Virus record (IMG/VR): IMGVR_UViG_3300025674_007777
Coordinates: 1-64,000 of that record
Direction: 5' to 3' (one strand)
Length of the DNA: 64,000 nucleotides
From: a virus
Under the pieces are notes generated by a model, which did not search any database, was not told where the DNA came from, and saw only the letters and a list, made by a program, of their open reading frames with translations. Made by a program: the position numbers and the translations under genes. This document shows, piece by piece, positions 6,336 through 55,373 of the stretch; position 1 is the first letter of the stretch, and every line of letters begins with the position of its first letter.

Positions 6336-6494
6336 TTATCCGTTTAACAATTTTCGATTGGCATCACCTTCTTTTGACGACTCCTGCAATTGTATGAATT
6401 CTTGTTTCTCAGAATGATTCAATGATCTGAACCAGGCTTCAAAATCGCCGCCATTCAAGTTGATATATTCTTGCCAAAGATCTCGTTTACTCAT
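6336..6494 (-). CDS. Small hypothetical protein
   Basis: Likely start MSKRDLW at 6494, overlapping the end of the upstream gene. Confidence 0.5.
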   Translation of the reverse strand: MSKRDLWQEYINLNGGDFEAWFRSLNHSEKQEFIQLQESSKEGDANRKLLNG

Positions 6495-6834
6495 AAACTT
6501 CTGCTCCGTTTTCGTTATCCTCAAATACTGAAACATATGTACATCCAAACTGTTTACATATCTCACGTGCTAACATTTCACAGCTCATTGCACCAAACTC
6601 ATGTGTTCTGGAGTTTTCATCATAATACTTTGCACGAAGATATTCTTCAATGTCTCGTTTGAACATGATAAACTCCACATCACGATCATCATGATATACT
6701 CGCTTCTTTGCAGTGATGTGCCAAATATGACGATGCATATTGCTCAGAAAACCTACTTCAGGAAAATGTGCCTGGGCATCTGGCCAATTATGCATACCAT
6801 CCAATTGTAATGTTGCTATAACGTTTGTTCTCAT
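6487..6834 (-). CDS. QueD-like T-fold protein, DpdL-like (candidate 7-carboxy-7-deazaguanine decarboxylase)
   Basis: GMHNWPDA...FLSNMHRHIWH...HDDRDVEF...SCEMLA...VSVFEDNENGA; LxxxHRHx(F/W) matches the DpdL signature as I recall it. Confidence 0.65.
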   Translation of the reverse strand: MRTNVIATLQLDGMHNWPDAQAHFPEVGFLSNMHRHIWHITAKKRVYHDDRDVEFIMFKRDIEEYLRAKYYDENSRTHEFGAMSCEMLAREICKQFGCTYVSVFEDNENGAEVYE

Positions 6835-6838
6835 TGTA

Positions 6839-6870
6839 TTAATATAAGATAAATTTTTCAAATAATCAAA
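6839..6870 (-). promoter_or_regulatory. Bacteroidota-type sigma-A promoter
   Basis: TTTG-N20-TATATTAA, 4 nt upstream of the ATG at 6834. Confidence 0.7.
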
Positions 6871-22022: not shown

Positions 22023-22025
22023 CCA

Positions 22026-23093: not shown

Positions 23094-23103
23094 ATATAAT
23101 CTT

Positions 23104-26823: not shown

Positions 26824-26824
26824 A

Positions 26825-27676: not shown

Positions 27677-28455
27677 TAGTTATTTTTTATATGATTTTTA
27701 CTGTAAATGTCGTGTTTATGCTTATCGCCTGGCAATAAGAATGATAAATGCATGCAATGTCTATAACCTGCTTTTGGTAAATTGGCTCTATGCAATATAT
27801 GACTATTAAAACTAGCACATGTGCCAGACTTTCCTATCACTTCATGACCTTCAATTGAATCAGCTTTATATCGCTTTCCTTCTTCGTGTAGTACACATTT
27901 TTCGTCAATCATTTTAGGTGACATGATAGGATCTGCTATCATTAGACCTCCCTGATCAATATCGATATCATTGAGATATACCAATAATTTGTAATTGTTC
28001 AGTTCAAATGATTTGTCTGTATGCCATAATGCACTGTAAAATATACTATGCTCATAATCAAATGGCATATCATCTTCCAGTACTGGTTCAATCTCTCCGA
28101 ATCTACATCGTTTTAAATGTATATCATCTACATACTGATTAGGACCTATGCATTCAAATTTTATTTCATTCACAGATAATTCTGACAATCCCAGATAATC
28201 AATCACATCGTTCTTAAATGAATCTGCTAATTCTGGCGGTAGATTATTCATGATATAATCGGTAGAATTTGTTCCACTGATACCAAATACCCACCGATAA
28301 TCAATATCATTGAATGAGTGGCTAGCTTCTAATTTATCATTATCTAAAAGCCAATTCATAATATCAATACCAGCATTAGCTAATTTTGTATCCAATGAAA
28401 CATTATATGATTCAGAATCTATGGGAACAATAGATTTTAATTTATCATTGATCAT
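27676..28455 (-). CDS. PhyH-like 2OG-Fe(II) dioxygenase
   Basis: LWHTD, KLLVYLND, GKSGT..FNSHILHRA. Confidence 0.75.
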   Translation of the reverse strand: MINDKLKSIVPIDSESYNVSLDTKLANAGIDIMNWLLDNDKLEASHSFNDIDYRWVFGISGTNSTDYIMNNLPPELADSFKNDVIDYLGLSELSVNEIKFECIGPNQYVDDIHLKRCRFGEIEPVLEDDMPFDYEHSIFYSALWHTDKSFELNNYKLLVYLNDIDIDQGGLMIADPIMSPKMIDEKCVLHEEGKRYKADSIEGHEVIGKSGTCASFNSHILHRANLPKAGYRHCMHLSFLLPGDKHKHDIYSKNHIKNN

Positions 28456-28745
28456 ATCTCTTCAATCCTTTTAGTTTTATCACAAATTAACAAATCATAT
28501 GCAGGCTTCTCACCTGTAATTAATTTTTGATATTTACATCCCCAACTATCTAACTGTCGCTTTGTTACATCGTACCAGTCAATACCAGTAACAGAGCCTC
28601 GAGCTGTCCAGTAGGTAATGGTATTACCTTCATCATATAATATATTAATTTTTTTGATATTTTCCAAATTTGGCTCGGCTTTTTTATAGTCTCGATCGCC
28701 AGAATAGAAACATATCGTTTCGTCAATGTCAACGTAAATGTTCAT
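28452..28745 (-). CDS. Small capless HAD phosphatase (capsule-biosynthesis type)
   Basis: YVDIDETI, YWTARG, GEKP.YD..ICDK. Confidence 0.85.
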   Translation of the reverse strand: MNIYVDIDETICFYSGDRDYKKAEPNLENIKKINILYDEGNTITYWTARGSVTGIDWYDVTKRQLDSWGCKYQKLITGEKPAYDLLICDKTKRIEEI

Positions 28746-29362
28746 AACGTATTATAGAAATTGTTTTGCTTTTCTTGTCGGTCAATAGATTTAGGATGCT
28801 GTAGACAGTACATATCATTGGTAGGTAACTTAGCTTCAGATGTCTGTCCTATGATGATTTCATGTACCTTGTTTATCCATTTGATGCGATCGACATTTTT
28901 AAGTATTCTGCACTGATAATCTGGAAAATTGATACGATTATCAGCATCCATTCTCCAACCCCATTGCTGTAAATGTTCTGCGCGAATACCATTCACAATA
29001 TTGATTCGTGGTACCCAGTAAACTTCAGTGTCTGGATTTTCCTTGAGTATCCATGGTAAGGTTGCTACAAGATCTGGATCTGGATATTCATCAGCATCTA
29101 TCTGGAATATGTAATCACCTGAACACGCCTCTTTCAATTTATTTTTGAAGTTAGCAAAATGATTCATTAATGGATATTCGGTATGAACAATATCATCACC
29201 ATGTTTTCGAATAATATCATAAACATCTGATGTAGTATTGCCTTCATCATTTTGAACAACTACTTCATCTTCATCACGTTTGTGTTTGATGAGAAATGAA
29301 ACTAGCCGATCAAGTTCCTGAGCTTCGCTGCATACTGTTATGGCATAACTAATCCGCATCAA
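28742..29362 (-). CDS. GT2 family glycosyltransferase
   Basis: ISYAITVCSE, DYIFQIDADE, PDYQ.R, VHE. Confidence 0.88.
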   Translation of the reverse strand: MMRISYAITVCSEAQELDRLVSFLIKHKRDEDEVVVQNDEGNTTSDVYDIIRKHGDDIVHTEYPLMNHFANFKNKLKEACSGDYIFQIDADEYPDPDLVATLPWILKENPDTEVYWVPRINIVNGIRAEHLQQWGWRMDADNRINFPDYQCRILKNVDRIKWINKVHEIIIGQTSEAKLPTNDMYCLQHPKSIDRQEKQNNFYNTL

Positions 29363-29837
29363 CTACCATCTTTTTGTTAACAGTTTCATAGAAAAAATTC
29401 AGAGCAGTCTCAAATTGATTCATTTCAAACTGAGTCGCATTATCCACATCTAATCTAGCTGTAAAATATTCACCCTCTTTACCAGGCACAGGATACTTTT
29501 TACGCTCTTCTCCTATTATTTCCACAACCTCTGCTACTTCATAATGAAATTTATCAGCAGCACCATCTGGATATATCATAGCACCTGGTAATTGCATAAA
29601 TGCAGGATACCAGCATAGACCGACGGCGTCAATTATTCGAGCTTCTTTCATTAATTCAGTTAAACCTGCTTCATATGCCTCTTGAGCATCTGATTCGTGC
29701 ACTAACTGATCTGTGGTTGTATAACCAGTTTCCATACAAATCATAGAAACTACTCCTGTCTGTTCATCTGCTTCTTCTAATACAGTATTATTTCCGGTTA
29801 CCGGAGATATGGCATCATAAGTAATTTTAGGCTTCAT
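29349..29837 (-). CDS. Hypothetical protein
   Basis: ORF embedded in the GT operon. Confidence 0.65.
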   Translation of the reverse strand: MKPKITYDAISPVTGNNTVLEEADEQTGVVSMICMETGYTTTDQLVHESDAQEAYEAGLTELMKEARIIDAVGLCWYPAFMQLPGAMIYPDGAADKFHYEVAEVVEIIGEERKKYPVPGKEGEYFTARLDVDNATQFEMNQFETALNFFYETVNKKMVVDAD

Positions 29838-31158
29838 TTGCTACTTTTTTTAATTTAGGTAATTTAACTTTAGATGTATTTGCCGAATTCACTTTCTTTA
29901 ATTTTGGCAAATTTAATTTCATTTCTTTTGGTACTGATTCCAATGCTTTATCAATACGTTTCACAAATAATTCACTCATATGATCGAATGTGAAATTATT
30001 TAATACATATTCCTGCTGCTTCTTAGCCTGTTTCTGATAAGTTTTATAATTATCAATTACATCAATCAGTACCTGAGCTGCGTATGAATAATTTACTCTG
30101 AACCATTCAGACTCTTTCAGTAACCAATTGTTAGCAGCTGATGAATCTACCTTCATAAGTTCGCCTGGTAACAATACTGCATGTTTGAGAAAATCGACAT
30201 GTCCGGACCAGTTAGATGCGATGACAGGCTTGCCAATTGCAGAAAATTCTAATAATGGGCGACCAAAACCTTCTCCATGCGTAAATGATACCATGGCTTT
30301 CACTCTTGGATGATTGTATAGATCATTCATTTCTTCATCAGTAAGATCTCCATGCAACAAATAAATGTTAGGTGCTTTGTTACCATATGGAGCTATTATC
30401 TGCTGTATCTTCTTTTGTATTTGATCTCGATCTATGATAGAAAATTTAGCAGATGATGTTTTCAATATCAGGCCTGGACGTTTACTGCTCGGTTTACGTT
30501 TGAAAGCTTCACAGAATGTTTTGATCATCATACCTATATCTTTTCTGTCATGGCCAATGTTCCCATTCAGCCAATGTCCCACAAATAGATAACAAAAATC
30601 ATCTTTTATATCTGATAATTCAGACTTTATTTCTGGTCCGATCTGTGACGTTTTATTGAATATATGAGTCCTAAGACCTTCAAATAATACTTCACATGGT
30701 TTTTCCATCTTGATTTCGCCTATCTTTTGTCTAGTTTTCTCATCATGCTTATTAAAAACAGAAGATTCAATTGATTGTTTAGAATGTTCTGATGTTGTTA
30801 TGATAAGATCCATGCGATTGCACCCTTCTAACTGCTCGCCTGGAATGATAGTTGTTTCAAAACCTGCTGTAACTCCAATGCTATATTTACCCATCGGCTG
30901 AAACTCACTCGGTATTGATACTTGTATGAAAATATCTGGCTTTCTAGTTATGTTACCTTTTGCAAAACGCTTCAATATTTCTGAATGCTCTGGATCATTC
31001 GGATCTAATGCATTCATTGGAGTACTGCCCCATGGTAATGATATCAATTCAATATCATACCGGTCTTCTTTAATTAATGATAATACCAATTCTCTGGTAT
31101 GGGCGCCGTATCCAGATCTGGTGGCTACCGGTCCTTGTATAACAATATATGGTCTCAT
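29827..31158 (-). CDS. GT4 (GT-B) glycosyltransferase
   Basis: RSGYG, RKDIG, HGEGFGRPLLE, PVIASNWSGHVDF. Confidence 0.88.
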   Translation of the reverse strand: MRPYIVIQGPVATRSGYGAHTRELVLSLIKEDRYDIELISLPWGSTPMNALDPNDPEHSEILKRFAKGNITRKPDIFIQVSIPSEFQPMGKYSIGVTAGFETTIIPGEQLEGCNRMDLIITTSEHSKQSIESSVFNKHDEKTRQKIGEIKMEKPCEVLFEGLRTHIFNKTSQIGPEIKSELSDIKDDFCYLFVGHWLNGNIGHDRKDIGMMIKTFCEAFKRKPSSKRPGLILKTSSAKFSIIDRDQIQKKIQQIIAPYGNKAPNIYLLHGDLTDEEMNDLYNHPRVKAMVSFTHGEGFGRPLLEFSAIGKPVIASNWSGHVDFLKHAVLLPGELMKVDSSAANNWLLKESEWFRVNYSYAAQVLIDVIDNYKTYQKQAKKQQEYVLNNFTFDHMSELFVKRIDKALESVPKEMKLNLPKLKKVNSANTSKVKLPKLKKVANEA

Positions 31159-32621
31159 TTTAATACTATTCCTGTGTTTTGAATTTTTTCTTGCTGATTA
31201 ATCTTATATAATGTAAAGCGTTTACGTGGCTTCCATGATTTTAGACATTCATCAATGCATTCAGACATTGCCTGGCACATCTTCCTAGATGACATTTTGG
31301 ATTCATCACCAAGAACCCATTCTCTACCTGCCTGACCCGCTTCTGCTCTGAATTCTGGTGACATATCATACCAATACCGGATTGCTTTCGCTACATCTTG
31401 GAAATCGGCTCTGTCGTCAAAGATATATGGTGTTTGTGGAGATCCTTGCAATGAACGATTTGACGGAAATACTGGTCGTGCCCATATACCATGTTGTTCG
31501 TATCGACCAATATGATTGCTTGAAAATTCAGTATCAAACTCTATCCAATTTCCTTCTTCATCTTCAAATCTACAACCATCTTGCAATCCACCAGTCACAT
31601 TATTGATAATAGGAGTACCGGTATGTAATGATTCACACCACGAAATACCAAAACCTTCATTACTAGCAATATTAATCGTAACATCTGAAATATTATACAA
31701 ATAGTTCAAATGCCGAGTATCGACTCTATCTGTAGAAAACATTACATTATAATCTGGGCATATAGCTTCTTTGACAGCATAAAGATCAGTACCATTACCA
31801 TCTACCGGTGATGTATGCATTAATAAACAAGTTTTGCGTGCTTTCTCTTTGGGTAAACCATCACAGAATGTTTTATATGCTAAAATTACATCACCCGGTT
31901 GCTTACGTCGTATGTTTCTATTGTTCCAAAATAAAATGAAATCAAAATTATTGTTACCAGCAAATCCAGTTTTAAATTGTTGGAAATCTTCCCATTCAGG
32001 ATGCAGTTCATCTATCTTGTAAAATTGTGTCTCATTAACACCATGAGGTACCCACTGTACGGCCCAATCTGGTTTAGGATGTTTCCGTATCACGTTCTTA
32101 ACAAGATTTTGTGTCTGCCGTGAAATGTTCATTAGTAGATCACAACTTTCATAATATGATTCATTCCAATGAGGATATGGAACATCATCCCAGATGTTAT
32201 AATACATGATCGGAACCTGTTGCCTGATTTCATGTTCTATATCATACAACCAAGTCCAGTATCTAGGATCAGTGAAATGGAGAATGGCATCAGGCTTTTC
32301 CAAGTCAATAATTTCCTTCAATGCTGATTCATTACCATAACCAGAAAATGGATAGAATCGCAGATAAGCATCATGTACTCCTGTCTGCTGTGCTACATCG
32401 TCTGATGCATCCATCACTTTACCATGATCTGGATGTTTCACTGCGGCTGCTAATTGTACCCAATCATACTTATCAATTGTACCCATCACAAATTCGCGTG
32501 ACATTACACCGATACCTGAAGGCATTCGGAGGTCATCTGACATTAATAAGATCTTTGGTTTTTTTCTTTTTGGCTTAGAAGGGTCTATCTTTCTAAGCTT
32601 TGGTAACTTTATTTGACTCAT
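31155..32621 (-). CDS. GT4 (GT-B) glycosyltransferase
   Basis: KILLMSDD, PHGV, NRNIRRKQP, SNEGFGISWCES. Confidence 0.88.
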   Translation of the reverse strand: MSQIKLPKLRKIDPSKPKRKKPKILLMSDDLRMPSGIGVMSREFVMGTIDKYDWVQLAAAVKHPDHGKVMDASDDVAQQTGVHDAYLRFYPFSGYGNESALKEIIDLEKPDAILHFTDPRYWTWLYDIEHEIRQQVPIMYYNIWDDVPYPHWNESYYESCDLLMNISRQTQNLVKNVIRKHPKPDWAVQWVPHGVNETQFYKIDELHPEWEDFQQFKTGFAGNNNFDFILFWNNRNIRRKQPGDVILAYKTFCDGLPKEKARKTCLLMHTSPVDGNGTDLYAVKEAICPDYNVMFSTDRVDTRHLNYLYNISDVTINIASNEGFGISWCESLHTGTPIINNVTGGLQDGCRFEDEEGNWIEFDTEFSSNHIGRYEQHGIWARPVFPSNRSLQGSPQTPYIFDDRADFQDVAKAIRYWYDMSPEFRAEAGQAGREWVLGDESKMSSRKMCQAMSECIDECLKSWKPRKRFTLYKINQQEKIQNTGIVLK

Positions 32622-35815: not shown

Positions 35816-36253
35816 CTATTTTCCAGTTGAACCAAACCCTTCTTCTCCTCGCTCTGAACTTGATAGATTTTCCACCTCTAAAAGTTCGATATAAGGGATT
35901 GGCATAATAACTAATTGACCTACTCTGTCGCCATCTGCATATCGCTTCAATGATGGCCAATGAGCTTCTTCTTTGAATTTGAATCTCAATTTGATTTCAC
36001 CTCTGTAACCTGAATCTATCACACCTACTGAATTTGCTAACATCAGATCCTTTTTGGAATTTGATGATCTAGGAAATATCAATCCTACATGACCTTCTGG
36101 AATCTCAATGGCAATACCTGTATGATATTCTGCAAAGTGATGGCGTGTATCAATCTTATGCGTTACTGCAAACAGATCCATACCTGCATCGCCAGGATTT
36201 GCATATGAAGGCACTTTAGCTTTTGGTGTCAATTTTTTGAACTTGACCTGCAT
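35816..36253 (-). CDS. dut: Trimeric dUTPase
   Basis: AGMDL, PRSS, GVIDSGYRGE, GQL, RGEEGFGSTG. Confidence 0.95.
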   Translation of the reverse strand: MQVKFKKLTPKAKVPSYANPGDAGMDLFAVTHKIDTRHHFAEYHTGIAIEIPEGHVGLIFPRSSNSKKDLMLANSVGVIDSGYRGEIKLRFKFKEEAHWPSLKRYADGDRVGQLVIMPIPYIELLEVENLSSSERGEEGFGSTGK

Positions 36254-36969
36254 TAGCTTACTTGTAATTGGACTAGGAAATATGTACACTCATAATCAGA
36301 TCCGGTGAATGTGGCACGAGCCAATCCTGCGGCAGACACTTCCAACTTAGCCTGAGTTGCATCTTTGTTAGCCATCATCATTTCTTTTAGCAACGAAGCT
36401 GAAAAGCATGTCATGCCCATATCAGTAGCATCATCGGCATCGATATTGAATTTGATTCTATTGTTATTGATAGTGGAATAATTGATAACTAACTCTGCCG
36501 TACCGGCACTGACATGCACTCCAAAGTTATCTGCATCCGGAATAGCATTCTTTGCCTTAATAAACTTGTTACGAAAATCATCTGTGATAGGAATAGTCAC
36601 ATTCCAATCAGGCATATTCTTCAGTTCTGGAACCTGACGGATGATGCTAAGATCTGCCAACATGAATGTCATGTTAACTTCTCCATCTGAGATAGCTAAA
36701 CTGACAGCCTTGTCTCCAACCTTGTTCACATCAATGTCCACATCATCTGATACGGCTGATAACATTTTTGTTAGTAATGGAGTAGCATAAACTCCTAATT
36801 CAGATGTACCTAAATTAATGGAATCGCTTGTCAATGTTCCTATCACATTCTGATCATCTGATATGAACTCAATAGTACAACCGTTATCTGATGTTTTCCA
36901 TTTCACAGAATTCACTGCTCCATTCAGATAATAACGATTGATAAAACTTAATAATTCTGTTTTCTTCAT
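36253..36969 (-). CDS. DNA polymerase sliding clamp (gp45/PCNA-like)
   Basis: 238 aa, LADLSII motif, position next to the clamp loader. Confidence 0.75.
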   Translation of the reverse strand: MKKTELLSFINRYYLNGAVNSVKWKTSDNGCTIEFISDDQNVIGTLTSDSINLGTSELGVYATPLLTKMLSAVSDDVDIDVNKVGDKAVSLAISDGEVNMTFMLADLSIIRQVPELKNMPDWNVTIPITDDFRNKFIKAKNAIPDADNFGVHVSAGTAELVINYSTINNNRIKFNIDADDATDMGMTCFSASLLKEMMMANKDATQAKLEVSAAGLARATFTGSDYECTYFLVQLQVS

Positions 36970-36971
36970 AA

Positions 36972-38159
36972 TTATGTAACGTTAAAAAAATGGTTTAATA
37001 CACTGTCGTTTGATATTTCTTGCGTCGAACTGTATTTCTTATATAAAGGCAGCGACTTCTCATAGATTTCATATGCCTTATCTGGATGCGCAAACATCTC
37101 TCTCATTGATGTCATTGCTCGATAAAATTCATTAGGGAGCATCAAACTTACTAATTCATCATGACACTTCACAAGTTCTGTAACCTGACGAACTGTTTCA
37201 TTGTAAACAATCAGATTGTTTATGGTCATCTTATTCATACACGGAGCATCATACTTGGCCACATCTCCAAATGTAAATCCTTCTGCTACCGGATGGCCAT
37301 ATGGATTAGGAACCGGATCTGTCTCTTTGTATGGCAATGCATCACCTTTTGGAAAATGAAGTTGATTGAACACCATCTTACCTAATTGCGGCGAATGCAG
37401 ATAAATACCATAAACAGGATACTGTCCGGGAGAACTTGAGTCAGTTGATATCTGAATTCTACCTCCGTAATATTCGTTTATCATTTTCTGAAAGTATGCC
37501 AATATGAAGAAGTCAGATACTTTGGAAATACCCAGGATGTGAATGTAACGATTTCGTTCCTTATCAAACTCTCCGTTCTGTAACATCACTGCAATGGCTT
37601 GCATTAGCAACACAAGACCACTTTGAGTACCTCCGATACACCAACCATTGAAATCAAAATCAGCTACCTTCTTATACCAATACTCATACTCTGCCAAATT
37701 GTTACCTTGAATTACATTCAGAAAATCACACTTACCGGATTGGTTATCTGCAAAATATTTGAAGTTCTCATAACTGATGTCTAAACATTCATAGAACTTA
37801 CCCTCATACTTCACTCTTGGCGGAATATCAAGATTAACTCCAATATCACAGTTATTCTCTAACCAATGAAATATAGTTTCTTTGAACTCTGGTTTCCATT
37901 TGATTGCGCCAGTAGCCAATTGGAATCCTCCAGAGTCTCCCATAACTTTCACATTATCACCTAACCCATACTCTTTTCGAGACTCAGGCTTCTTGTAATG
38001 ATGACCTGCTGTGATCAGAAAATATTCATGACGCCATGGTTCTGGAAATTCCGGAGAATAGAATCTAGCTGGAATGCCAGGTGCCACCTCTTTGTCTTTC
38101 TTCAACCAGCTGGCAAAACCTCCTGATGACAGTGATGGATAATATACTAACTCTTTCAT
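36972..38159 (-). CDS. dpdA: TGT-superfamily DNA 7-deazaguanine transglycosylase (DpdA, DpdA2-like)
   Basis: DSGGFQ, LDIPP, NVIQG, GWCIGG, HILG, STDSSS; no Tgt CxCxxC zinc site; linked to folE/queD/queE. Confidence 0.82.
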   Translation of the reverse strand: MKELVYYPSLSSGGFASWLKKDKEVAPGIPARFYSPEFPEPWRHEYFLITAGHHYKKPESRKEYGLGDNVKVMGDSGGFQLATGAIKWKPEFKETIFHWLENNCDIGVNLDIPPRVKYEGKFYECLDISYENFKYFADNQSGKCDFLNVIQGNNLAEYEYWYKKVADFDFNGWCIGGTQSGLVLLMQAIAVMLQNGEFDKERNRYIHILGISKVSDFFILAYFQKMINEYYGGRIQISTDSSSPGQYPVYGIYLHSPQLGKMVFNQLHFPKGDALPYKETDPVPNPYGHPVAEGFTFGDVAKYDAPCMNKMTINNLIVYNETVRQVTELVKCHDELVSLMLPNEFYRAMTSMREMFAHPDKAYEIYEKSLPLYKKYSSTQEISNDSVLNHFFNVT

Positions 38160-39355
38160 TCGAAATCCAATGTTAACTGATTGTTATATGCTGGCCCGGC
38201 AATCAATGCTTCAATGTACTCCTTCTCATGCCAAACATTAAGTTCTTTATCAAAATCATTTGCCACAATAAATGCTTCTGTTCTACGACCAAGATCAGAA
38301 CGATCGACAATATGTGGATGTGCCATCGGAGCTTCGATTGCATCTTCAATGGTTTCCAGAGCATCTGAAACATCAAACGGTTTATACATACGCTTCGGTG
38401 TAATGAATTCAGGAAAACTTCTGAAGAATGGATATACAATGTCTGCACCAAATGCTGTAGCTTCAATTGCTGTCCAGGAAACATAATCTTGAAGTGATGA
38501 ATTGAACTGAATCTTACAAGTTGCTAATTCTGTATAATATTCCTGTTTAGTCAATCCACTCAAGAGTTTGAATCGGGGCTGACGCTTCGCCAATGCTTTC
38601 AATTCTTCAATGACTCCTGGTACCATACTTCTGAACTCCTTACCAGAGGTAGTGACATGCCATTCATAATCCGGACGATAAGATAAAAAGGATTCGGCAA
38701 CCTTCATCATGAAGAAAGGATTTTTTTCTTTATCCAATCGAGAAGAATATACAATTACCTTCTTCTTCTCATAATTGCCGGCAGGTAGTTTAGTTAGAGT
38801 TGCGTCCTTATGAATAGGCAATGACACTACATGGATTGGAGCATTAAATCCTGCTTCACGTAGCTGCTGTTTATGAATGGTACTACCTACAAATATACCA
38901 GACATTCGTTTATCTAAACCTAGTTCGTAATGTCTCATCCAATCTCGCATTGGATAAGTGAAATCATATTCATCGACTGATTGTGCATGTAACATGGCAT
39001 ACACTTTCACATTAATACCATAAAGATCTAATGCGTACCATATGGCATCCAAACCAGGTGTCCAATAATCTTGCAAGAAGATAATGTCATTGTCTTTAAC
39101 TTTACCTTCATTGATCATTTTCAGAAACTGATTGCATTGGCTCAGTGAATATACACCTCTGCCAACCGCATCTAACACTGCGCCGACCTTTATTTCCTGA
39201 TCAACCATTTCTCCCTCGACTTCGACGAAGTTCAAGCTTCTTGCATAAGGTTCGAATGCCTTAGGCATCCACTCTTTTGATAATTGAAAAGTATATCTAC
39301 TTTTAATTGGTTCTAAACTGAAATACCACAAATTTCTTTTCATATCTTTTTTCAT
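38156..39355 (-). CDS. GT-B (GT4-like) glycosyltransferase coupled to dpdA
   Basis: YSSRLDKEKNP, LTKQEYY..L, SSLQDYVSWTAIEA..FG; 4-bp overlaps with both neighbours. Confidence 0.8.
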   Translation of the reverse strand: MKKDMKRNLWYFSLEPIKSRYTFQLSKEWMPKAFEPYARSLNFVEVEGEMVDQEIKVGAVLDAVGRGVYSLSQCNQFLKMINEGKVKDNDIIFLQDYWTPGLDAIWYALDLYGINVKVYAMLHAQSVDEYDFTYPMRDWMRHYELGLDKRMSGIFVGSTIHKQQLREAGFNAPIHVVSLPIHKDATLTKLPAGNYEKKKVIVYSSRLDKEKNPFFMMKVAESFLSYRPDYEWHVTTSGKEFRSMVPGVIEELKALAKRQPRFKLLSGLTKQEYYTELATCKIQFNSSLQDYVSWTAIEATAFGADIVYPFFRSFPEFITPKRMYKPFDVSDALETIEDAIEAPMAHPHIVDRSDLGRRTEAFIVANDFDKELNVWHEKEYIEALIAGPAYNNQLTLDFE

Positions 39356-39789
39356 AATGCTCTATCAAATTTATAATCATCCGGTGTCACATGCTGCATG
39401 TTCTGTATACTTGTACAATATAATGAATAATCTGCATACAACACTTTGATGCTGTCATTTTCTTTCAACAAGGATGCATCCTCCGCTTCCATCATGAACA
39501 TGATATGAGCATATACTCGTACCATGGCTGGAATGTGTTTCAACATACCTGGTTGCACTTCTATGGTCACCGGAACCTCTTGTACAATCATTAAGTTCAA
39601 TAACCAATCCCAATCCAATGGAGATGTCCTATCAATGAGCTGTCTAGTTGCTGGCGTACATATGTAGATATGTGGGGCATCTGGACGCTTTGGCGTTTCC
39701 GGAGTGAAGTTTCCAATGAAAAATGTCATGATGTCTGTGAATCGACCTTCACATTCTTTTCCGTACCAATAATCTTTTATTCCTAACAT
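39352..39789 (-). CDS. Hypothetical protein, first gene of the GT-dpdA cassette
   Basis: YWYGKECEG...TFFIG...PHIYI...VTIEV; no recognised family. Confidence 0.7.
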   Translation of the reverse strand: MLGIKDYWYGKECEGRFTDIMTFFIGNFTPETPKRPDAPHIYICTPATRQLIDRTSPLDWDWLLNLMIVQEVPVTIEVQPGMLKHIPAMVRVYAHIMFMMEAEDASLLKENDSIKVLYADYSLYCTSIQNMQHVTPDDYKFDRAL

Positions 39790-39793
39790 AAAC

Positions 39794-39825
39794 TAAATAT
39801 AAGTTAAATAATTCAATTATCCTAA
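39794..39825 (-). promoter_or_regulatory. Bacteroidota-type sigma-A promoter
   Basis: TTAG-N20-TATATTTA, 4 nt upstream of the ATG at 39789. Confidence 0.6.
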
Positions 39826-42305
39826 CCAAATGAGAAGAATTTTTGCAAATTGTTGTTATCTGGTATCTTGCCCCAATTCAATGCACCATAGAAGTCATCC
39901 AATTTGTTCTGAAATGCTGATCTGAATATCTTATCATGATCAATAAATTGGGTAACGTAATCATAAAGGGCTTCTGGATCTTCCATACCTTTCAGTGCCA
40001 TCACATCTAATCGCAATGGATTATTCTTCAGATATGTCCATCTGATCTTTTCGCCGTTCACAATCTCTCTGACATTGAACACATTATGATATCTAAGCAT
40101 GTCATTGTAATTCAGCGCTGCTTTGGCGTGAACCGGCGTACCCTTAGGCCTTGGAGCAAATGTGTCAGCCCCTGATATCTGATACTTCTTGATGTTCTTG
40201 ATACCCGTAGGGAACATGATCTGATCTATGGTCATGCCTTTGATATCATCTTTGAATTTCAATATCTTGGCATCCAGATCATTCTTCTCAATGTCATTCA
40301 GAATATCCTCCAGAACTTCGGCCATGAAGGATCGGAATGCAGGTGGGAATGAAGATCTTACCACATCCAATCCTTTGACATCTAATCTGGAAATGGTGTG
40401 CCCTTCCTGATTGATCAACCACTGAGCATATCTTTTCTTAGCAATCCAGAGACCTGCCTTTGCAACGAACTCCTGTTTGATGTCAAATCTATGTTTATCT
40501 ACATGATGGAACCGTTTAGCATAGATGTTATATGCATTGTTAATGAATGACTGCATTTCAGTTGCAATCTCAATGGTGCGATCGGCCATCCACTTTTCAT
40601 CAGTCTCATCAAATGTTTCAAACCGTTTCTCAATCAGAGGCAATGATGAGAAGAACACTGAATCAGTATCAATGTATATGTTATAATCTTTCTTCACTCC
40701 AAGTTCATTCTCATAGAACTTGTTACCAATGTCTGCAGTGAATTTGATCAACTGCTGGCCTGTACTTGTGATGGCGACAGCATTGTCGGGGTCAAAGAAT
40801 CTGAAAGTAGGATTACCCAATACTCCATAAAATGAATTCAGAAGAATCTTAGTCACCAACTGCATACGATCAAAGTATTCAGCTTGTTCCTTGTTACCCT
40901 CCTTCTCATATTTCTTACGCAGATTCTTATATTCAACTCGCTCATTGAACCAGTTATCAAGAATGGTTGGCAGAAAGCCATTCAGCTTCTTATCATAGAT
41001 AACACCGTTGGCTGCAATGGAATAATCATTCTCATCCAGATATTTTTTCAATGCAGTCGTATCCTCCCAACCATTCCATCCATCAGTGTAATGTTGACCT
41101 TTGCCCTTCACATAACTGTTGCCATCAAAATTATCTATCTTTGTGACTTTGGTTTCTGGTGATATGTTCAGAGTCATGATGATTGACGGATATAGAGATG
41201 TCAAATCCAAATCATATACCCATTTATATCTACCTGGATTAGGTGGCTTCACATATGCTCCTAACAAATCTAATGGTTCCGAAGAATCTCTGGTCGCACG
41301 TGATGGTGCCACAATGTTCAAGCGTTTCAGATATGTGAGAGCAGCTCCATCCAGATATCTGGTTGCAAATATGAAATCATCATATGCGACATGACCTTTG
41401 TGACAAATACCTCTTGCAAGATCAATCAATTTCATTTTCTCATCAAGCTCATAGACCAGATCCACATCCGTCATGTTGTAATCAATGAACTTCATGATAT
41501 CTTCTCTCATCAGATCATCCAATGAGCCATCATACTTCACTTTACCTTTGCCTAACTCTTTCTGTGAAATAGCTTCCAGAGAATAACTACTCTCCTGCGA
41601 ATATGTAAAGTTCTTATACAATGCCATGTAATCCAAACTAGCAACACCTGAAATACGATAACGATTTCTATGCTTCATCCAGATCACATCTTTGATAGGA
41701 GACAACTGCCTTGCTCGAGATTCTCCTAACAATTTGCTCATTCGATTGAACAGATAAGGAACGTCAAAGAAATCAATGTTCCAGCCTGTTATGATGGTTG
41801 GTTGTATCTCAACATATTTTCTGAGAAACTTATCTAACAGCTCATGCTCTGTGGCACAGGACACAACTGTCTTGTTGTCAATGATCTGATTCTCTACTGT
41901 ACCATCAGGATCTAAAATCCATACCACTCGCTGCTTCTTTGATGCATCCAATATTGCTATGGATGTAACTGCATTCTCTGCAGTCTCTGGAGTAGGAAAC
42001 TTATCTGTGGTGTCAACCTCAATATCAAAAAACAATGTTCGATGACCCGTTGATATCTCATCTGAATCAGTATACAGATCTATCAGTGTTCTTGTCTCTG
42101 GACTTATGTCTGCCTCATATAATCCAGGTTCTCCTCTTTCAAATTCAAATACCTTTTCTACCTGCTGCCCATCCAATGCCACATACTTACCATATCTGCT
42201 TTTGCGATAAGCATATGGCTTGTATTTGATCTTCTTGTAACCTGTAGTGTCGTCCCATAAATGTATGGTGTTATCACTTTTTCTATATGATATTGCTTGA
42301 TACAT
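39822..42305 (-). CDS. polB: Family B DNA polymerase (gp43-like)
   Basis: Exo FDIE, GWNIDFFD, YNMTD; pol DLTSLYPS, KILLNSFYG, YIDTDS. Confidence 0.96.
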   Translation of the reverse strand: MYQAISYRKSDNTIHLWDDTTGYKKIKYKPYAYRKSRYGKYVALDGQQVEKVFEFERGEPGLYEADISPETRTLIDLYTDSDEISTGHRTLFFDIEVDTTDKFPTPETAENAVTSIAILDASKKQRVVWILDPDGTVENQIIDNKTVVSCATEHELLDKFLRKYVEIQPTIITGWNIDFFDVPYLFNRMSKLLGESRARQLSPIKDVIWMKHRNRYRISGVASLDYMALYKNFTYSQESSYSLEAISQKELGKGKVKYDGSLDDLMREDIMKFIDYNMTDVDLVYELDEKMKLIDLARGICHKGHVAYDDFIFATRYLDGAALTYLKRLNIVAPSRATRDSSEPLDLLGAYVKPPNPGRYKWVYDLDLTSLYPSIIMTLNISPETKVTKIDNFDGNSYVKGKGQHYTDGWNGWEDTTALKKYLDENDYSIAANGVIYDKKLNGFLPTILDNWFNERVEYKNLRKKYEKEGNKEQAEYFDRMQLVTKILLNSFYGVLGNPTFRFFDPDNAVAITSTGQQLIKFTADIGNKFYENELGVKKDYNIYIDTDSVFFSSLPLIEKRFETFDETDEKWMADRTIEIATEMQSFINNAYNIYAKRFHHVDKHRFDIKQEFVAKAGLWIAKKRYAQWLINQEGHTISRLDVKGLDVVRSSFPPAFRSFMAEVLEDILNDIEKNDLDAKILKFKDDIKGMTIDQIMFPTGIKNIKKYQISGADTFAPRPKGTPVHAKAALNYNDMLRYHNVFNVREIVNGEKIRWTYLKNNPLRLDVMALKGMEDPEALYDYVTQFIDHDKIFRSAFQNKLDDFYGALNWGKIPDNNNLQKFFSFG

Positions 42306-42805
42306 TAAACTATGTGTATATCCTTTAAGTTTCTGTTCAGTGAATTATTGTCCATACCATACCCGTACACCCAATCATCGCCAATTTCAAATCCATAAAA
42401 ATCTGCTCTTTGTGGACCATTCTTACGTTGCAGTAATGCTACAACACGAACTTCTTCTGGTAACATTTCGTTTACTCGAAGTACAACTTCTAACATGGTG
42501 TTACCCGTGTCCAAAATGTCATCAACAATGTATGCTCGCTGACCACGAATATGCATTTCCATATCTTTGGTGAATATCACTCCTCCGGAATTGTCTTTGC
42601 CGACATATGATTTGGCTCGAACAAAATCTACCTGCACATCTAGATCCATCTCTCTGATCAGATCTGCAAAGAATATGCTAGCCCCGTTCAATACACATAC
42701 CATAACCGGAGGATGTTCATTACCTGAACTTCTATGGTCTTCCACAATTTCCTGAGCCAACTGTTTAACTCTGGCTTTGATATCTGCCTCTTTAATTAGT
42801 ACCAT
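42305..42805 (-). CDS. hpt: Hypoxanthine-guanine phosphoribosyltransferase-like PRTase
   Basis: VCVLNGASIFFADL, AKSY, IVDDILDTGNT, WVYGYGMD. Confidence 0.9.
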   Translation of the reverse strand: MVLIKEADIKARVKQLAQEIVEDHRSSGNEHPPVMVCVLNGASIFFADLIREMDLDVQVDFVRAKSYVGKDNSGGVIFTKDMEMHIRGQRAYIVDDILDTGNTMLEVVLRVNEMLPEEVRVVALLQRKNGPQRADFYGFEIGDDWVYGYGMDNNSLNRNLKDIHIV

Positions 42806-43463
42806 ATCCTCTGACAAATTCGTAATATTCATTTCTGGTCGCAGAATCATCTTTGAATGCGCCAGTTAACTTACTAGTCTTCATGCTAGCGCCACCGTGC
42901 TTCACACCACGACATTGCACGCAATTATGAGTGGCTTCTATCATTACTGCCACACCTGCATTGTCTTCTATGATGGCATCAACTGCATGATGTATTGCAA
43001 CAGTTAACTGTTCCTGTATAGCACCTCTTCTGCCGAAATGCTCTACCAATCGATTCAGTTTTGATAATCCAATCACTTTACCATCTTTACCTGGTATGTA
43101 TGCAACATGTACCACACCCATGATAGTTTGATGATGATGTGAACACATGGAAGTCAAAGGAATACCTCCTTCAAACACAATACCATCATATCCATCAGAT
43201 GGGAATGTAGTTATCTCAGGTGGGGCATCATATCGACCAGCCCAAAGATCTCTCACATATGCTTTTGCAACACGATAAGGTGTTTTATCTGAATTCGGAT
43301 CATTGCGCCAATCCACACCTAAGGCATCTAAAAATTTACCAAATGCTTCTTCAGCATCTGCAATCATTAGTTGTTTCTCTTCTTCTGTCAAAGGCCTACC
43401 TTCAGCTGCGCCATTGGCATAACCGGCCTTTACTAGTTCTAAATTTACTTTGTTTTCACACAT
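42792..43463 (-). CDS. folE: GTP cyclohydrolase I
   Basis: TPYRVAK, SMCSHH, IGLSKLNR, IQE, HNCVQCRG. Confidence 0.96.
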   Translation of the reverse strand: MCENKVNLELVKAGYANGAAEGRPLTEEEKQLMIADAEEAFGKFLDALGVDWRNDPNSDKTPYRVAKAYVRDLWAGRYDAPPEITTFPSDGYDGIVFEGGIPLTSMCSHHHQTIMGVVHVAYIPGKDGKVIGLSKLNRLVEHFGRRGAIQEQLTVAIHHAVDAIIEDNAGVAVMIEATHNCVQCRGVKHGGASMKTSKLTGAFKDDSATRNEYYEFVRGYGTN

Positions 43464-43490: not shown

Positions 43491-43787
43491 TTATTGATTT
43501 GATACCATTACAATTTCTGATTCTCTAACTAAAACATATGTCTCATCATCAAATGACACTTCATTGTCTCCTTTCAACCATCGTGATGCAACTAATACTG
43601 TATCATCAACTTTACAAGTCATTGCAATTCTGTCTCCTGTCTGAGTGAACAATCCTGGGCCAACAGCTATGACATCTGCATATTCATAATTGTTAGACTC
43701 AGTGGTCAGAATTATACCACCTTTAGTAGTTTCCTGACCCTCTTGCTTTTTGAGAAGAACATAATCGCCCATAGGTTTCATTTTCAT
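43491..43787 (-). CDS. groES: Co-chaperonin GroES
   Basis: KPMGDYV, TKGGIIL, VIAVGPG, VRESEI. Confidence 0.92.
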   Translation of the reverse strand: MKMKPMGDYVLLKKQEGQETTKGGIILTTESNNYEYADVIAVGPGLFTQTGDRIAMTCKVDDTVLVASRWLKGDNEVSFDDETYVLVRESEIVMVSNQ

Positions 43788-43854: not shown

Positions 43855-44631
43855 CTACACCATTCTCTCAGTTCCGAACGCCATAATATGGCTTCTTCCA
43901 GTAAACCTCCATCCTCTATCTCTAACAAAGTTCATTACTACAGGATAGGATTCTTGTAGAGCTGGAATATCATCACCTGCTGGCATACACCAAACCTTTT
44001 CATCTGGTATCTCTAGATCTTTAACGAATTCTTCTACTTCCGGAAGAATGCTTAGTTCTTTATCTAATACAGGTTTGATATGATAATCTTTATGATATTC
44101 GATAGAAGCTTTGATTGCTTCTTTATTCAATCGCTTACTGTTATGTTTTATAATCATCTTTTCATCCACTATTTCTCCTAATGGAGTTTTTGTTCCTACT
44201 ACAGGAATGGAATTGCTGAACTTAGGTGAAATAGATAAAAGATCAATAGGATAATCAGTTTCTAAGAAATGAGATCCTTCAGTTTCAATGGTAATGAAGA
44301 TTCCTCGCTCATGAGCAAAATGAGTTAATTCATTTACTAGAGCAGGATGCATTGTAGGAGAACCTCCTGTTAGCATCATCTCTTTGATATGAGGATTATC
44401 ATCATACATTTTGATAATGTCGTTAAAACAGAAGGTTCCTTTTTCCGGATGGATGGAGGTGTACCATGAATCACACCACCCGCCTTCACCGAAAAAACAT
44501 CTGTGAGTACATCCTGATGTTCTAACCACAATGGTAGGATAACCTTGTCTTGAGCCTTCAGATTGAACTGCCGTATAGAGTTCTAATACCTGTAAAGGCT
44601 TTTCATAACTTCTTAATCTTTTACACTTCAT
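43855..44631 (-). CDS. queE: 7-carboxy-7-deazaguanine synthase (radical SAM)
   Basis: ELYTAVQSEG, RTSGCTHRC-x7-CDS, LTGGSP, TIETEG, SISPK. Confidence 0.9.
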   Translation of the reverse strand: MKCKRLRSYEKPLQVLELYTAVQSEGSRQGYPTIVVRTSGCTHRCFFGEGGWCDSWYTSIHPEKGTFCFNDIIKMYDDNPHIKEMMLTGGSPTMHPALVNELTHFAHERGIFITIETEGSHFLETDYPIDLLSISPKFSNSIPVVGTKTPLGEIVDEKMIIKHNSKRLNKEAIKASIEYHKDYHIKPVLDKELSILPEVEEFVKDLEIPDEKVWCMPAGDDIPALQESYPVVMNFVRDRGWRFTGRSHIMAFGTERMV

Positions 44632-45088
44632 ATATTGCACTATTTTTTTCGTGTTCTTTAACTTCTACTGATACTACACGACATCTGCCATTCGTATCTT
44701 TTGTCACCCACTCATTGAGTTTATGATAAAAATATTCTGCAAACTTCTCTGCTCCTACAGCAGGTAACACTCGTAACTGAACTATGCCATGTTGATCCAA
44801 AGCTTCGAAAGTTGACAATGCAGGATCATCCTCTGATAAGATAACTGTATGATCTAACATGTATGCCAACCAGTCTTTAAGATTCATGCCATCGATAAGT
44901 TCCTCAGATCTTTTTGCTCTGCCGAAATCAACTACCCAGTTTCTGAAATCTAGATCGCCTTCATAGGTCACTTTCAGAGATACTGAATATCCATGTAGAA
45001 ATTGGCAATGTGTATCAATTGCTTTCCATTGACGAAAGCAAGTAGAATAACCATCATATATTTTTGTAGATCTAAATCTTTCCTGCAT
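44621..45088 (-). CDS. queD: 6-carboxy-5,6,7,8-tetrahydropterin synthase
   Basis: HCQFLHGY, WVVDFG, LDH, GAEKFA, EHEKNSA. Confidence 0.9.
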   Translation of the reverse strand: MQERFRSTKIYDGYSTCFRQWKAIDTHCQFLHGYSVSLKVTYEGDLDFRNWVVDFGRAKRSEELIDGMNLKDWLAYMLDHTVILSEDDPALSTFEALDQHGIVQLRVLPAVGAEKFAEYFYHKLNEWVTKDTNGRCRVVSVEVKEHEKNSAIYEV

Positions 45089-47192: not shown

Positions 47193-49049
47193 CTACACAA
47201 TTTCACATGCACCGCCAGCACATGCAATCTCACCTTTCAGATCTGTCTCATCTTCTGTTTCAACAATTCTTGAAAGATCCACATCAACAAGGCTCTGCAT
47301 TAGCTGATCATATTGTTCTTCTGTGATGTCCTCAAATGGAGCCTGCTTATAAGTACCTCCCATATAAGGTAGTACTGAGAGACCATTATAAAATTCACGA
47401 TTCTCCCACATCCAACTGCCTACAGCATCCCATTCATGTTCACGCACTGAAATGGTGGCTGAAATGTTATGACTGTTAGCACCTGTTCTATGTCCTGGGC
47501 GAATCCAATCCTTTGTGACATGTTTCACTCGCTCCAACAATTGTAGAGGTGATTCTGTTCTGAGGATTGCCGTCTCAGGAGATTTCTGTGGTACTGATAT
47601 CACAGCAGTGTCATGTGGTCTGAAATATTCATCTTCAATAAGCTCTGGATGATTTTCTACCAAATAAGAATAAATTGCTTCATTCTTGCCAACACGTACT
47701 CTTCTGATATAGAAATCATTGTGCCATGCATGAATACCTGATGATGTTCCCAATGTCAATGATGTGGTTCCTGCAGGCTTAACTGTGGTACATCTTGCTG
47801 CTTTGTTGATACCGATGAGACCAGCAACTCTAACGTTCTCATCTTTCACAACCTTAGCAGCTTCCTTCATGTTATAATCCAATATAACACCGGAACCGAT
47901 GCCTGTCATTGAAATACCTACCAATGCATCCTTCTCAGTGGTTCTTTGCCATACCGGACGCAGATAATGAAAATCTGTGTATCCTGCTTGTAATGTACCT
48001 ATCAGAGATGCTGCACGTACTCGCTCATTCAGATCTTCCTGAGATTCAATATTGGAAACATTCACTTCAGTTAGATTACAGAACTGGAATGGTCTCAGTC
48101 CAATCTCACAACATGGATTTGTTCCCCAATCTTTGTCATTGGAAAGATAAATGCCAGGTTCGCCGGCTCCACTCAACTCAATACGCTTCCAAAGATCCAT
48201 GAAGAAATCTTTTTCCAAGCGATGGCGAAGTAACACAGCTGAATTATTGGCACGACCTCTCTGTGGATTGTTCTCCCACCAATTACCAGACTTGCATCCA
48301 ATCATTTCATCATCATCTGCTGAGAACAAACTGATCAAAGCTGCTCGACGAATACCTCCTGCCAACACTGCATCTGCAATGTGACAAATGATGTCATGCA
48401 CTTCCAATGGAGTCAATTTATCACCGTTCTGCTTTTCATTCAGGATACCTTCCACTTTCACCAAGCATTCTCTCAGTGGCTGTGGTCCAGGTGCCTTACC
48501 TCCTGATGTTATGAGTCTAGCACCTTTTGGTCTGATGTCTGAAAAGTCAAACTTGATCTTTGATCCGCTATAGAAATACGTCTTCACTAACGCCTTAACT
48601 GCATCAGCCCAACCTTCAATTGAGTCTGCAATCAGGAATCTTCGTGTACGAGCTGGATTAGGTTTGTTGATCTCAGGTAGTTTGTCTACATGATGACGCT
48701 GGACCGAATATCCAACTCCTGTACCTCCTAACAATAGGAACATCACTTCACCAAATACTCTCCAATCATCAATTGGTGCAAATGCACAATTGTATACACG
48801 GTTAGGTGATATCTCAATAGGCTTACCAGCAAACTGCATACTACGCATTGATGGTAAAACTTTCTTGTCATATACTAATTTATATGCCGTTTCAATTGCT
48901 TCTGACAATGCAGGGTATTTTTTCAAATGCATTGCCTTGTTCCGATCCACAAGTTCTGTCCATGTCTCTCTCCTGTTCTTTTCAGGCAGAAACTTAGCAT
49001 ACTTCATGTGTACGGTGATATCACTGAGTATCTGGGTAGATATATCCAT
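47193..49049 (-). CDS. nrdJ: Class II (B12-dependent, monomeric RTPR-type) ribonucleotide reductase
   Basis: YNCAF, TNPCCEI, FCNL, TTVKPAGT, C-terminal CAGGAC; no small subunit gene adjacent. Confidence 0.9.
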   Translation of the reverse strand: MDISTQILSDITVHMKYAKFLPEKNRRETWTELVDRNKAMHLKKYPALSEAIETAYKLVYDKKVLPSMRSMQFAGKPIEISPNRVYNCAFAPIDDWRVFGEVMFLLLGGTGVGYSVQRHHVDKLPEINKPNPARTRRFLIADSIEGWADAVKALVKTYFYSGSKIKFDFSDIRPKGARLITSGGKAPGPQPLRECLVKVEGILNEKQNGDKLTPLEVHDIICHIADAVLAGGIRRAALISLFSADDDEMIGCKSGNWWENNPQRGRANNSAVLLRHRLEKDFFMDLWKRIELSGAGEPGIYLSNDKDWGTNPCCEIGLRPFQFCNLTEVNVSNIESQEDLNERVRAASLIGTLQAGYTDFHYLRPVWQRTTEKDALVGISMTGIGSGVILDYNMKEAAKVVKDENVRVAGLIGINKAARCTTVKPAGTTSLTLGTSSGIHAWHNDFYIRRVRVGKNEAIYSYLVENHPELIEDEYFRPHDTAVISVPQKSPETAILRTESPLQLLERVKHVTKDWIRPGHRTGANSHNISATISVREHEWDAVGSWMWENREFYNGLSVLPYMGGTYKQAPFEDITEEQYDQLMQSLVDVDLSRIVETEDETDLKGEIACAGGACEIV

Positions 49050-55364: not shown

Positions 55365-55373
55365 TATAAATAT
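55365..55373 (-). promoter_or_regulatory. Putative late-promoter motif ATATTTATA
   Basis: 10 nt upstream of the ATG at 55354. Confidence 0.5.

Follow-up and report, generated by a model that had tools for sequence, protein, structure and literature searches.

What use does a phage have for a purine phosphoribosyltransferase (PRTase) whose gene is wedged between folE, which encodes GTP cyclohydrolase I, and polB, which encodes its DNA polymerase? The question is raised by the gene hpt in a 64-kb stretch of DNA from an uncultured T4-like phage, hereafter the window, which is part of the 72.5-kb IMG/VR record IMGVR_UViG_3300025674_007777 (estimated completeness 40%). All genes treated here are encoded on the minus strand, and the GC skew is negative across the whole window. 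An earlier note on this DNA had described hpt as overlapping folE and polB, which is borne out, and had offered two uses for its product (HPT), namely a closed loop in which guanine is recycled or the synthesis of deazaguanine nucleotides before replication. The recycling loop is the one favoured by the comparative evidence given below. We put it at somewhat better than even that HPT is a guanine PRTase, which recaptures guanine displaced by a transglycosylase and returns it towards guanosine triphosphate (GTP) for FolE.

In the loop that we infer, together with the substrate of HPT and the release of guanine by a DpdA-like protein, GTP would be converted to 7-carboxy-7-deazaguanine (CDG) by FolE, QueD and QueE, and CDG to 7-deazaguanine (DG), probably by DpdL. 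The DpdA-like enzyme, which has the predicted fold of a tRNA-guanine transglycosylase (TGT), would then exchange guanine in the phage DNA for DG and set guanine free. From this guanine, or from other free guanine or hypoxanthine, and phosphoribosyl pyrophosphate (PRPP), HPT would form guanosine monophosphate (GMP) or inosine monophosphate (IMP), and host kinases would raise GMP to GTP, on which FolE acts. Recycling of this kind would halve the guanine-nucleotide cost of the modification and would also clear guanine, which can contend with the deaza base for the transglycosylase; it dissolves poorly and is a competitor in TGT exchange reactions. A genome of about 175 kb with 38% G+C would, on our estimate, set free about 65,000 guanines per copy if all were replaced, which would be a physiological reason for a dedicated sink.

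The protein itself matches Pfam PF00156 with 83.1 bits (cut-off 26.3). It matched 58 PDB sequences, the top 56 of which are PRTases of the hypoxanthine/guanine(/xanthine) type (one bearing only the name 'PRTase domain-containing protein 1') and the last two the Gpt-type 'purine PRTases' 4z1o and 1vdm. The best match is the hypoxanthine-guanine PRTase (HGPRT) of T. thermophilus, 3acb (E 6.9e-28, residues 19-177), and full-length alignment with cellular enzymes (3acb and E. coli Hpt, 1g9s) gives 35-39% identity within a common fold family. Shared with them are the PRPP loop, the Ser-Tyr dyad, the catalytic Asp, the Mg-binding Asp and the pyrophosphate-binding Arg, so the active site, made up of D110-D111, D114-T-G116-x-T118, S81-Y82, D167 and R173, is judged intact. 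The PRPP loop, Ser81-Tyr82, D114, D167 and R173 are invariant in 66 distinct viral homologues, the exception being position 110 (D in 61, E in 5). From HGPRT structures we take D114 to be the aspartate paired with N7 of the purine, which deazapurines lack, and D167 and R173 to be the Mg-binding and pyrophosphate-binding residues.

The motifs L54-N55-G56 and D110-D111-I-L-D114-T-G had been thought unusual in the earlier note, which did not hold up: VLNGA is also found in loop I of T. thermophilus HGPRT and in bacterial-like homologues, and the aspartate at position 110 is the common residue among the viral ones. LNG and DDI were accordingly rejected as marks of an unusual specificity. What sets the viral proteins apart from cellular Hpt and HGPRT is a 4-residue insertion after helix 1, a loop II that is one residue shorter with an invariant D-N-S-G-G, and the position of the gene, which is a phage core gene next to deazaguanine genes. 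A protein search recovered homologues of 167-169 amino acids, about 55% identical, all with the insertion, the D-N-S-G-G sequence in loop II and a lysine loop shorter by 3 residues. In a FastTree phylogeny (midpoint root, support values not read) the viral HPTs, including the distant L004, formed one clade with the bacterial-like ones outside.

A scan of IMG/VR revealed 165 relatives of the window HPT, and the best 80 of these plus one more distant locus were analyzed. The 81 loci come from many metagenomes and make up a single T4-like lineage, equal to one evolutionary event, and the lineage alone therefore gives no proof of functional coupling. The arrangement is nevertheless far from chance, recurring in 81 loci, and hpt is a conserved core gene of the lineage. 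PolB is found in 79 loci, GroES in 75, a 145-amino-acid protein in 69, QueE in 68, FolE in 67, a glycosyltransferase in 66, the TGT-like protein in 62 and QueD in 58, the missing cases falling at contig ends. Upstream of hpt stands GroES (42 loci), FolE (38) or a contig end (1); downstream stands polB (78), FolE (1) or a contig end (2), and the polB frame starts within 50 nucleotides of hpt in 45 of the 78. Four of five records of the lineage carry one PF00156 gene and the fifth carries two.

Evidence of a broader kind comes from phages outside this lineage, in which a smaller PRTase occupies the slot beside FolE or QueE. Flavobacterium phage immuto_2-6A has a 131-amino-acid PF00156 gene, gp211, in the order queE - x - x - PRTase - folE. 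A tblastn search with this protein matched 40 cultured-phage records, and for 13 of these 40 rows the coding sequence matched is annotated as GTP cyclohydrolase. One record was inspected from each of six lineages. Brevundimonas phage MaInes has the order RNR - deoxynucleoside monophosphate kinase - folE - PRTase (MAINES_00780), where RNR is ribonucleotide reductase, with queC/D/E 8 kb off; six DpdA queries found no DpdA there by phmmer, and this lineage has FolE-PRTase with QueC, QueD and QueE only. In Vibrio phage VpKK5 and Stenotrophomonas phage ply2008005c the FolE protein is 297-300 amino acids long, with the cyclohydrolase domain from about residue 117. The N-terminal part of the VpKK5 protein is the small PRTase, in which the PRPP loop is intact and the tail reads W-V-V-F-P-W-E, as in Gpt; in the Stenotrophomonas phage the N-terminal ~117 residues were seen as an unmatched stretch. 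In PA5oct the PRTase gp163 adjoins QueE (gp162), and gp168 and gp167 resemble the TGT-like protein and the glycosyltransferase of the window, while in phiST the PRTase lies about 17 kb from the deazaguanine cluster.

The small PRTase belongs to the Gpt/XGPRT type (1vdm, E 3.7e-16; E. coli XGPRT 1a95, E 3.5e-13), with HPRTs reaching only about 5e-4. It has in common with the window HPT the slot beside FolE/QueE, the superfamily PF00156 and a presumed 6-oxopurine activity; it differs in family and in length (115-161 amino acids), and BLASTP of HPT against gp211 aligns only 54 residues. In IMG/VR, 218 relatives were confirmed. At least one deazaguanine gene lies within 10 kb in 75 of the best 80 of these loci, a sample with a selection bias, as it consists of those most similar to a que-cluster PRTase. 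FolE was found in 67 of the 80, QueE in 67, QueD in 56, DpdA in 35, QueC in 32, DpdL in 5 and QueF in 3, and in four of the five loci without a deazaguanine gene the PRTase stands at a contig edge. The base rate of FolE in cultured-phage records is 389 in 50,697. A further scan, with canonical-like Hpt sequences, added 70 loci: 44 lack que genes within 10 kb, 8 have the arrangement of the window, one is a related T4-like HPT-DpdL-DpdA-PolB locus and 17 are arranged otherwise, among them QueD-QueE-DpdA-QueC-FolE-HPT (L174) and QueC-QueD-QueE-FolE-HPT (L199, L200). The check proposed in the earlier note, co-occurrence of the PRTase with que and dpdA genes, thus came out strongly positive, in the 81 Hpt loci, in 75 of 80 Gpt loci and in other que clusters with Hpt.

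At least two different families of 6-oxopurine PRTase thus appear to occupy the same slot by non-orthologous displacement, the window adding the Hpt type. The clusters concerned end differently, in 7-cyano-7-deazaguanine (preQ0) with QueC, in 7-aminomethyl-7-deazaguanine (preQ1) with QueF and in DG with DpdL. Since different families were taken up by clusters with different end bases, the activity sought should be one common to them by descent, acting on a metabolite common to the clusters. Guanine fits as that metabolite, being released by TGT-family enzymes, and FolE consumes GTP. The replacement by an Hpt-type enzyme in the same slot strengthens the case that these systems need 6-oxopurine PRTase activity as such. 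The genes of the base-exchange route are present as well, with a TGT-fold gene in the cassette in 62 of the 81 loci, the rest being cut contigs.

Features of the window that bear on hpt (positions of the window)
Feature	Coordinates	Strand	Basis
hpt, HPRT-family 6-oxopurine phosphoribosyltransferase	42305..42850	-	PF00156, TIGR01203, PDB HGPRTs, conserved active site
folE, GTP cyclohydrolase I	42792..43463	-	PF01227, 157.9 bits
groES co-chaperonin	43491..43787	-	PF00166, 70.5 bits; position conserved, 75/81 related loci
queE, CDG synthase (radical SAM)	43855..44640	-	phrog_2076, E 1.2e-49
queD-like 6-carboxytetrahydropterin synthase	44621..45088	-	PF01242, 53.5 bits; phrog_2389, E 1.5e-40
Class II (B12-dependent) ribonucleotide reductase, RTPR-like	47193..49049	-	TIGR02505, PF21995, PF02867
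polB, T4 gp43-like DNA polymerase	39822..42305	-	PF00136 + PF03104
145-aa protein, first of GT/DpdA-like group	39352..39789	-	Present in 69/81 loci
GT-B type glycosyltransferase	38156..39355	-	Weak PF00534; homologous to PA5oct gp167, E 4e-15
DpdA-like transglycosylase, TGT fold (predicted)	36972..38159	-	AF2 model + Foldseek; 395 aa
dUTPase	35816..36289	-	TIGR00576, 116.5 bits vs cut-off 102.55
DpdL homologue, proposed CDG decarboxylase (T-fold)	6487..6861	-	Similarity to phiST CGPG_00067

On the minus strand the genes follow in the order gp32, RecA, FEN, DnaB, reductase like ribonucleoside triphosphate reductase (RTPR), Smr, three unknowns, QueD, QueE, GroES, FolE, HPT, PolB, the 145-amino-acid unknown, glycosyltransferase, TGT-like protein, probable clamp, dUTPase and clamp loader. 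From queD through dUTPase, neighbouring genes overlap or are separated by at most 67 nucleotides, and groES ends 27 nucleotides upstream of folE. The longest reading frame of hpt has 181 codons and overlaps folE by 59 nucleotides when read from the first ATG; the true start is likely the ATG at 42805 (M16), because relatives of 167-169 amino acids begin at that position, which would give a protein of 166 amino acids and a 14-nucleotide overlap. The hpt stop codon TAA (42307-42305) shares base 42305 with the polB ATG (TAATG). No terminator-like site was found between the genes, the sole minus-strand site of the stretch lying inside folE, and such sites are no more frequent than in shuffled sequence (5 against 5.2), so that a single transcript over the hpt region is plausible. 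Megablast with 8.2 kb of the window found no near-identical cultured phage.

The deazaguanine genes of the window resemble those of known phages. FolE is 68% identical to that of immuto_2-6A and QueE 70% identical to that of Cellulophaga phage phiST, and the DpdL homologue is 38% identical (E 2e-26, with an HRH motif) to CGPG_00067 of phiST, which is the DpdL proposed as CDG decarboxylase in the relevant passages of PMC10516641. (This and the other statements drawn below from PMC10516641, PMC6112128, PMC12191111 and the tubercidin preprint refer to excerpts of these sources.) A DpdL homologue was found in five of five records. In some sub-lineages (L230 10064, L233 6765, L240 5876) it lies between the 145-amino-acid unknown and the glycosyltransferase, adjoining the TGT-like gene; in the window it is 30 kb from that gene. 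The QueD-like protein has C-x-x-x-H-G-Y at the place of the QueD signature, given in PMC10516641 as C-x-x-x-H-G-H. A GroES gene is found in immuto_2-6A too, just beyond the polymerase, by the deazaguanine cluster (L085 18629-18774).

No QueC was found in the record of the window or in five long relatives (60-83% complete), the search giving in G002 a sub-threshold PP-loop match of 14.7 bits. As QueC is missing and a DpdL homologue present, the base made by the phage is expected to be CDG or DG rather than preQ0, and preQ0 was rejected as substrate of HPT. The reductase has TIGR02505 (RTPR) as its best family, with 285 bits under a cut-off of 340, which supports its earlier assignment as a triphosphate-type class II enzyme. 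Guanylate kinase, MazG and UbiD (PF01977) were not found in five records (40-83% complete), and the dUTPase near hpt is by its family score bona fide; the usual companions of a pool-level pathway are therefore missing in the lineage as far as these records go. A further candidate for a pathway enzyme, u238, was dropped, as it is probably a sliding clamp (weak NCBIfam clamp match; homologue adjoining PolB in Mel-JY01).

For the DpdA of the earlier note an AlphaFold (AF2) model (predicted local distance difference test score 78.3, predicted template modelling score 0.82) gave in Foldseek five top matches that are all TGTs, the best being 1j2b (E 4.2e-9), so that a TGT fold is predicted from the model. 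The D-S-G-G-F-Q and L-D-I-P-P motifs are invariant. Pfam TGT does not match the protein, a profile search against PDB sequences gave only ArcTGT at E 0.1, and the branch of the window has lost the zinc cysteines. Translational coupling links the TGT-like gene to the GT-B glycosyltransferase and the 145-amino-acid unknown (36972-39789, minus strand), the latter matching nothing in Pfam, PHROG or NCBIfam scans, and the TGT-like/glycosyltransferase pair is homologous to PA5oct gp168/gp167 (L088 6986-9669). The DNA of PA5oct carries a modified G, according to part of a preprint (PMC12191111), and this may be a deazaguanine that is glycosylated or extended in some other way.

The rest of the window holds, on the same strand, a glycan-synthesis block of about 16 kb (16776-32621), with GT2 and GT1 transferases, methyltransferases, a polysaccharide pyruvyl transferase and a CMP-sugar cytidylyltransferase; a phage-encoded Fe/Mn superoxide dismutase (8896-9594; PF02777, 111 bits); and a 447-amino-acid reading frame (55373-56716) with a DNA polymerase family A domain (35.9 bits, cut-off 34.3), alongside the full PolB. 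The clusters of phiST (L084 11374-11853, 10472-11059) and immuto (L085 11704-12228, 13903-14427) contain an AAA_18 kinase-like gene together with pyrophosphatases like MazG or PRA-PH, and that of immuto also has a gene annotated in its record as thymidylate kinase.

Among known systems, the nearest is the 2'-deoxy-7-deazaguanosine (dDG) system of phiST, consisting of FolE, QueD, QueE, DpdL and DpdA3 (PMC10516641). The window FolE is 63% identical to that of phi13:1, the sister phage of phiST. As in the window, phiST has no QueC, its pathway stopping at CDG (excerpts of PMC10516641), and it has a divergent TGT-like gene close to its polymerase. The TGT-like protein of the window is longer (395 against 259 amino acids), and tblastn with it matches PA5oct-type proteins and not phiST. 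Unlike in phiST, a glycosyltransferase is coupled to the gene, the cassette includes the PRTase, which belongs to the Hpt type, and no MazG-like or kinase-like gene was found in five records of the lineage. By gene content the window can also be likened to the clusters of TubE and of the hypothetical ToyH, in which a PF00156 PRTase stands with FolE, QueD and QueE homologues and without QueC (excerpts of PMC6112128 and the tubercidin preprint). PMC6112128 lists the two under the accessions MG706975 and ACF06639.1. HPT would act like TubE if its substrate were CDG. Unlike those clusters, the lineage of the window has no UbiD decarboxylase in five records and does have a TGT-fold transglycosylase and DpdL.

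Several findings weigh against guanine recapture. Hosts normally own hpt or gpt. HPT scores 142.6 bits with NCBIfam TIGR01203, its best family by far, under the equivalog cut-off of 150; the shortfall is small, and by sequence HPT is a divergent member of the HGPRT family rather than an outsider. In the loop where HGPRTs carry the lysine that contacts O6, the viral subfamily has its 3-residue deletion, with Arg142, which HMMER pairs with the lysine of 3acb, invariant and position 141 varying (K in 42, R in 13, Q in 9; Q in the window), and the specificity of HPT may thus differ from that of cellular Hpt. The gene is tied most tightly to polB, with FolE adjacent in only 38 of 81 loci, and the DpdA-like gene is about 4 kb away. 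In the DpdA-like protein the C-x-x-x-C-x-x-C zinc motif (residues ~280-300), kept in 12 of 18 aligned homologues, is lost in the branch of the window. The kinase-like and MazG-like genes in clusters of fully G-replacing relatives are a typical pool-level pattern, and enzymes of the DpdA3 type (DpdA3 with DpdL) were not reconstituted according to passages of PMC10516641.

Many of the same findings speak for a pre-replicative role, in which HPT is a deazapurine PRTase joining CDG (like TubE) or DG to PRPP, kinases and the RTPR-type reductase yield deaza-dGTP for PolB, and the DpdA-like enzyme does something else or mops up; we hold this to be unlikely. In the form given in the earlier note, with preQ0 and a ToyH-like enzyme, it does not fit, no QueC having been found in the record or in five long relatives, and the role of ToyH is itself called hypothetical in the part of PMC6112128 concerned; a form based on CDG or DG is possible. 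In its favour, FolE, QueD and QueE with a PF00156 PRTase and no QueC are the composition of tubercidin clusters (excerpts of bioRxiv 10.64898/2026.04.15.718813), and TubE has been proven to act as a CDG-PRPP transferase (PMC6112128). The stop codon of hpt is coupled to the start of polB, the next gene in 78 of 81 loci, a coupling more constant than that of hpt with folE, and an RTPR-like reductase belongs to the cassette. Close QueE and FolE relatives come from phages of the phiST and immuto type, which replace all their G and for which DpdA3 with DpdL could not be reconstituted (passages of PMC10516641), and the phiST and immuto clusters carry MazG-like and kinase-like genes. The remodelled purine-binding loop of the viral subfamily (invariant Arg142, variable 141) and the TIGR01203 score below the equivalog cut-off point the same way. 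On the other side stand the TGT-fold base-exchange enzyme conserved in the cassette, the lack of guanylate kinase, MazG-type pyrophosphatase and UbiD decarboxylase in five records, and the invariance of the aspartate that would pair with N7. Two or three 6-oxopurine PRTase families have been recruited by clusters with different end products, including Queuovirinae-type clusters with QueC and DpdA; several families in one slot, with differing end products, point to the ancestral activity common to them. TubE, moreover, uses CDG and rejects 7-deazaguanine (excerpts of PMC6112128), while the phage of the window has DpdL. That the Hpt- and Gpt-type PRTases of deazaguanine clusters are deazapurine PRTases in general, turning CDG or DG into a ribonucleotide that reaches DNA through an RTPR-type reductase and PolB, we regard as likewise unlikely.

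A quite improbable explanation is that hpt is a generic purine-salvage gene of the replication module, supplying more GMP and IMP for DNA and RNA synthesis and having no specific tie to deazaguanine. It would agree with the position of hpt within a nucleotide and replication block (RTPR, dUTPase, PolB, clamp loader), with the 44 of 70 canonical-like hpt loci that have no que gene within 10 kb, and with the 42 of 81 loci in which FolE is not the neighbour. It does not agree with the que cassette found in all 81 loci where the contig extends far enough, the presence of que genes near the Gpt type in 75 of 80 loci, compared with a base rate for FolE of 389 in 50,697 records, or the existence of FolE-PRTase fusions; the Hpt type is, besides, almost absent in cultured phages, with only 18 weak tblastn matches, mostly to unannotated fragments or bacterial-looking records, the contexts of which were not inspected. 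Cellular Hpt is a target of guanosine tetraphosphate (ppGpp), and HPT could be imagined as a source of GMP that escapes host regulation, for instance by ppGpp, or as a sink for PRPP or purine bases arising from host defence. Such a role has its sole support in changes peculiar to the subfamily in loops I, II and IV; the genomic context gives no pointer to defence, and the pairing with FolE/QueE across phages would be left unexplained, which makes a regulatory or counter-defence role very improbable.

In 2019, Crippen reportedly described Campylobacter phages as replacing all of their G. Neither the Hpt-type nor the Gpt-type query gave a Campylobacter phage record among its matches, so full replacement would not require a phage PRTase, in keeping with the helper role given to it by guanine recapture. 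Full replacement in these phages is also cited in a passage of PMC10516641.

The enzyme family and the phage 7-deazaguanine modification, the nearest being the DpdL/DpdA3 type of phiST, are known; new with respect to the literature searched is the PRTase as a recurrent component of these systems. No report on hpt or gpt in phage deazaguanine clusters was found, though gene tables in the Hutinet and Cui supplements may list such PRTases. The string 'phosphoribosyl' occurs 0 times in the main texts of PMC10516641, PMC6884629 and PMC10484667, and in PMC11097641 and PMC11309003 NAMPT is the only such mention.

Phage 7-deazaguanine systems have been described as base synthesis plus DpdA. A purine PRTase seems to belong to them as a third component that keeps recurring, having been drawn from separate enzyme families on at least two occasions and in places even joined to FolE in one protein. 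If HPT makes deaza-nucleotides instead, the post-replicative model would be overturned, and if this held for both PRTase types, phages with fully substituted genomes would make deaza-nucleotides ahead of replication, against the present view of all 7-deazaguanine DNA modification as post-replicative. If guanine is recycled, as we favour, this would explain how a phage affords the exchange of tens of thousands of guanines per genome, and the recycling PRTase would be a helper perhaps lacking in the DpdA3 reconstitutions that failed.

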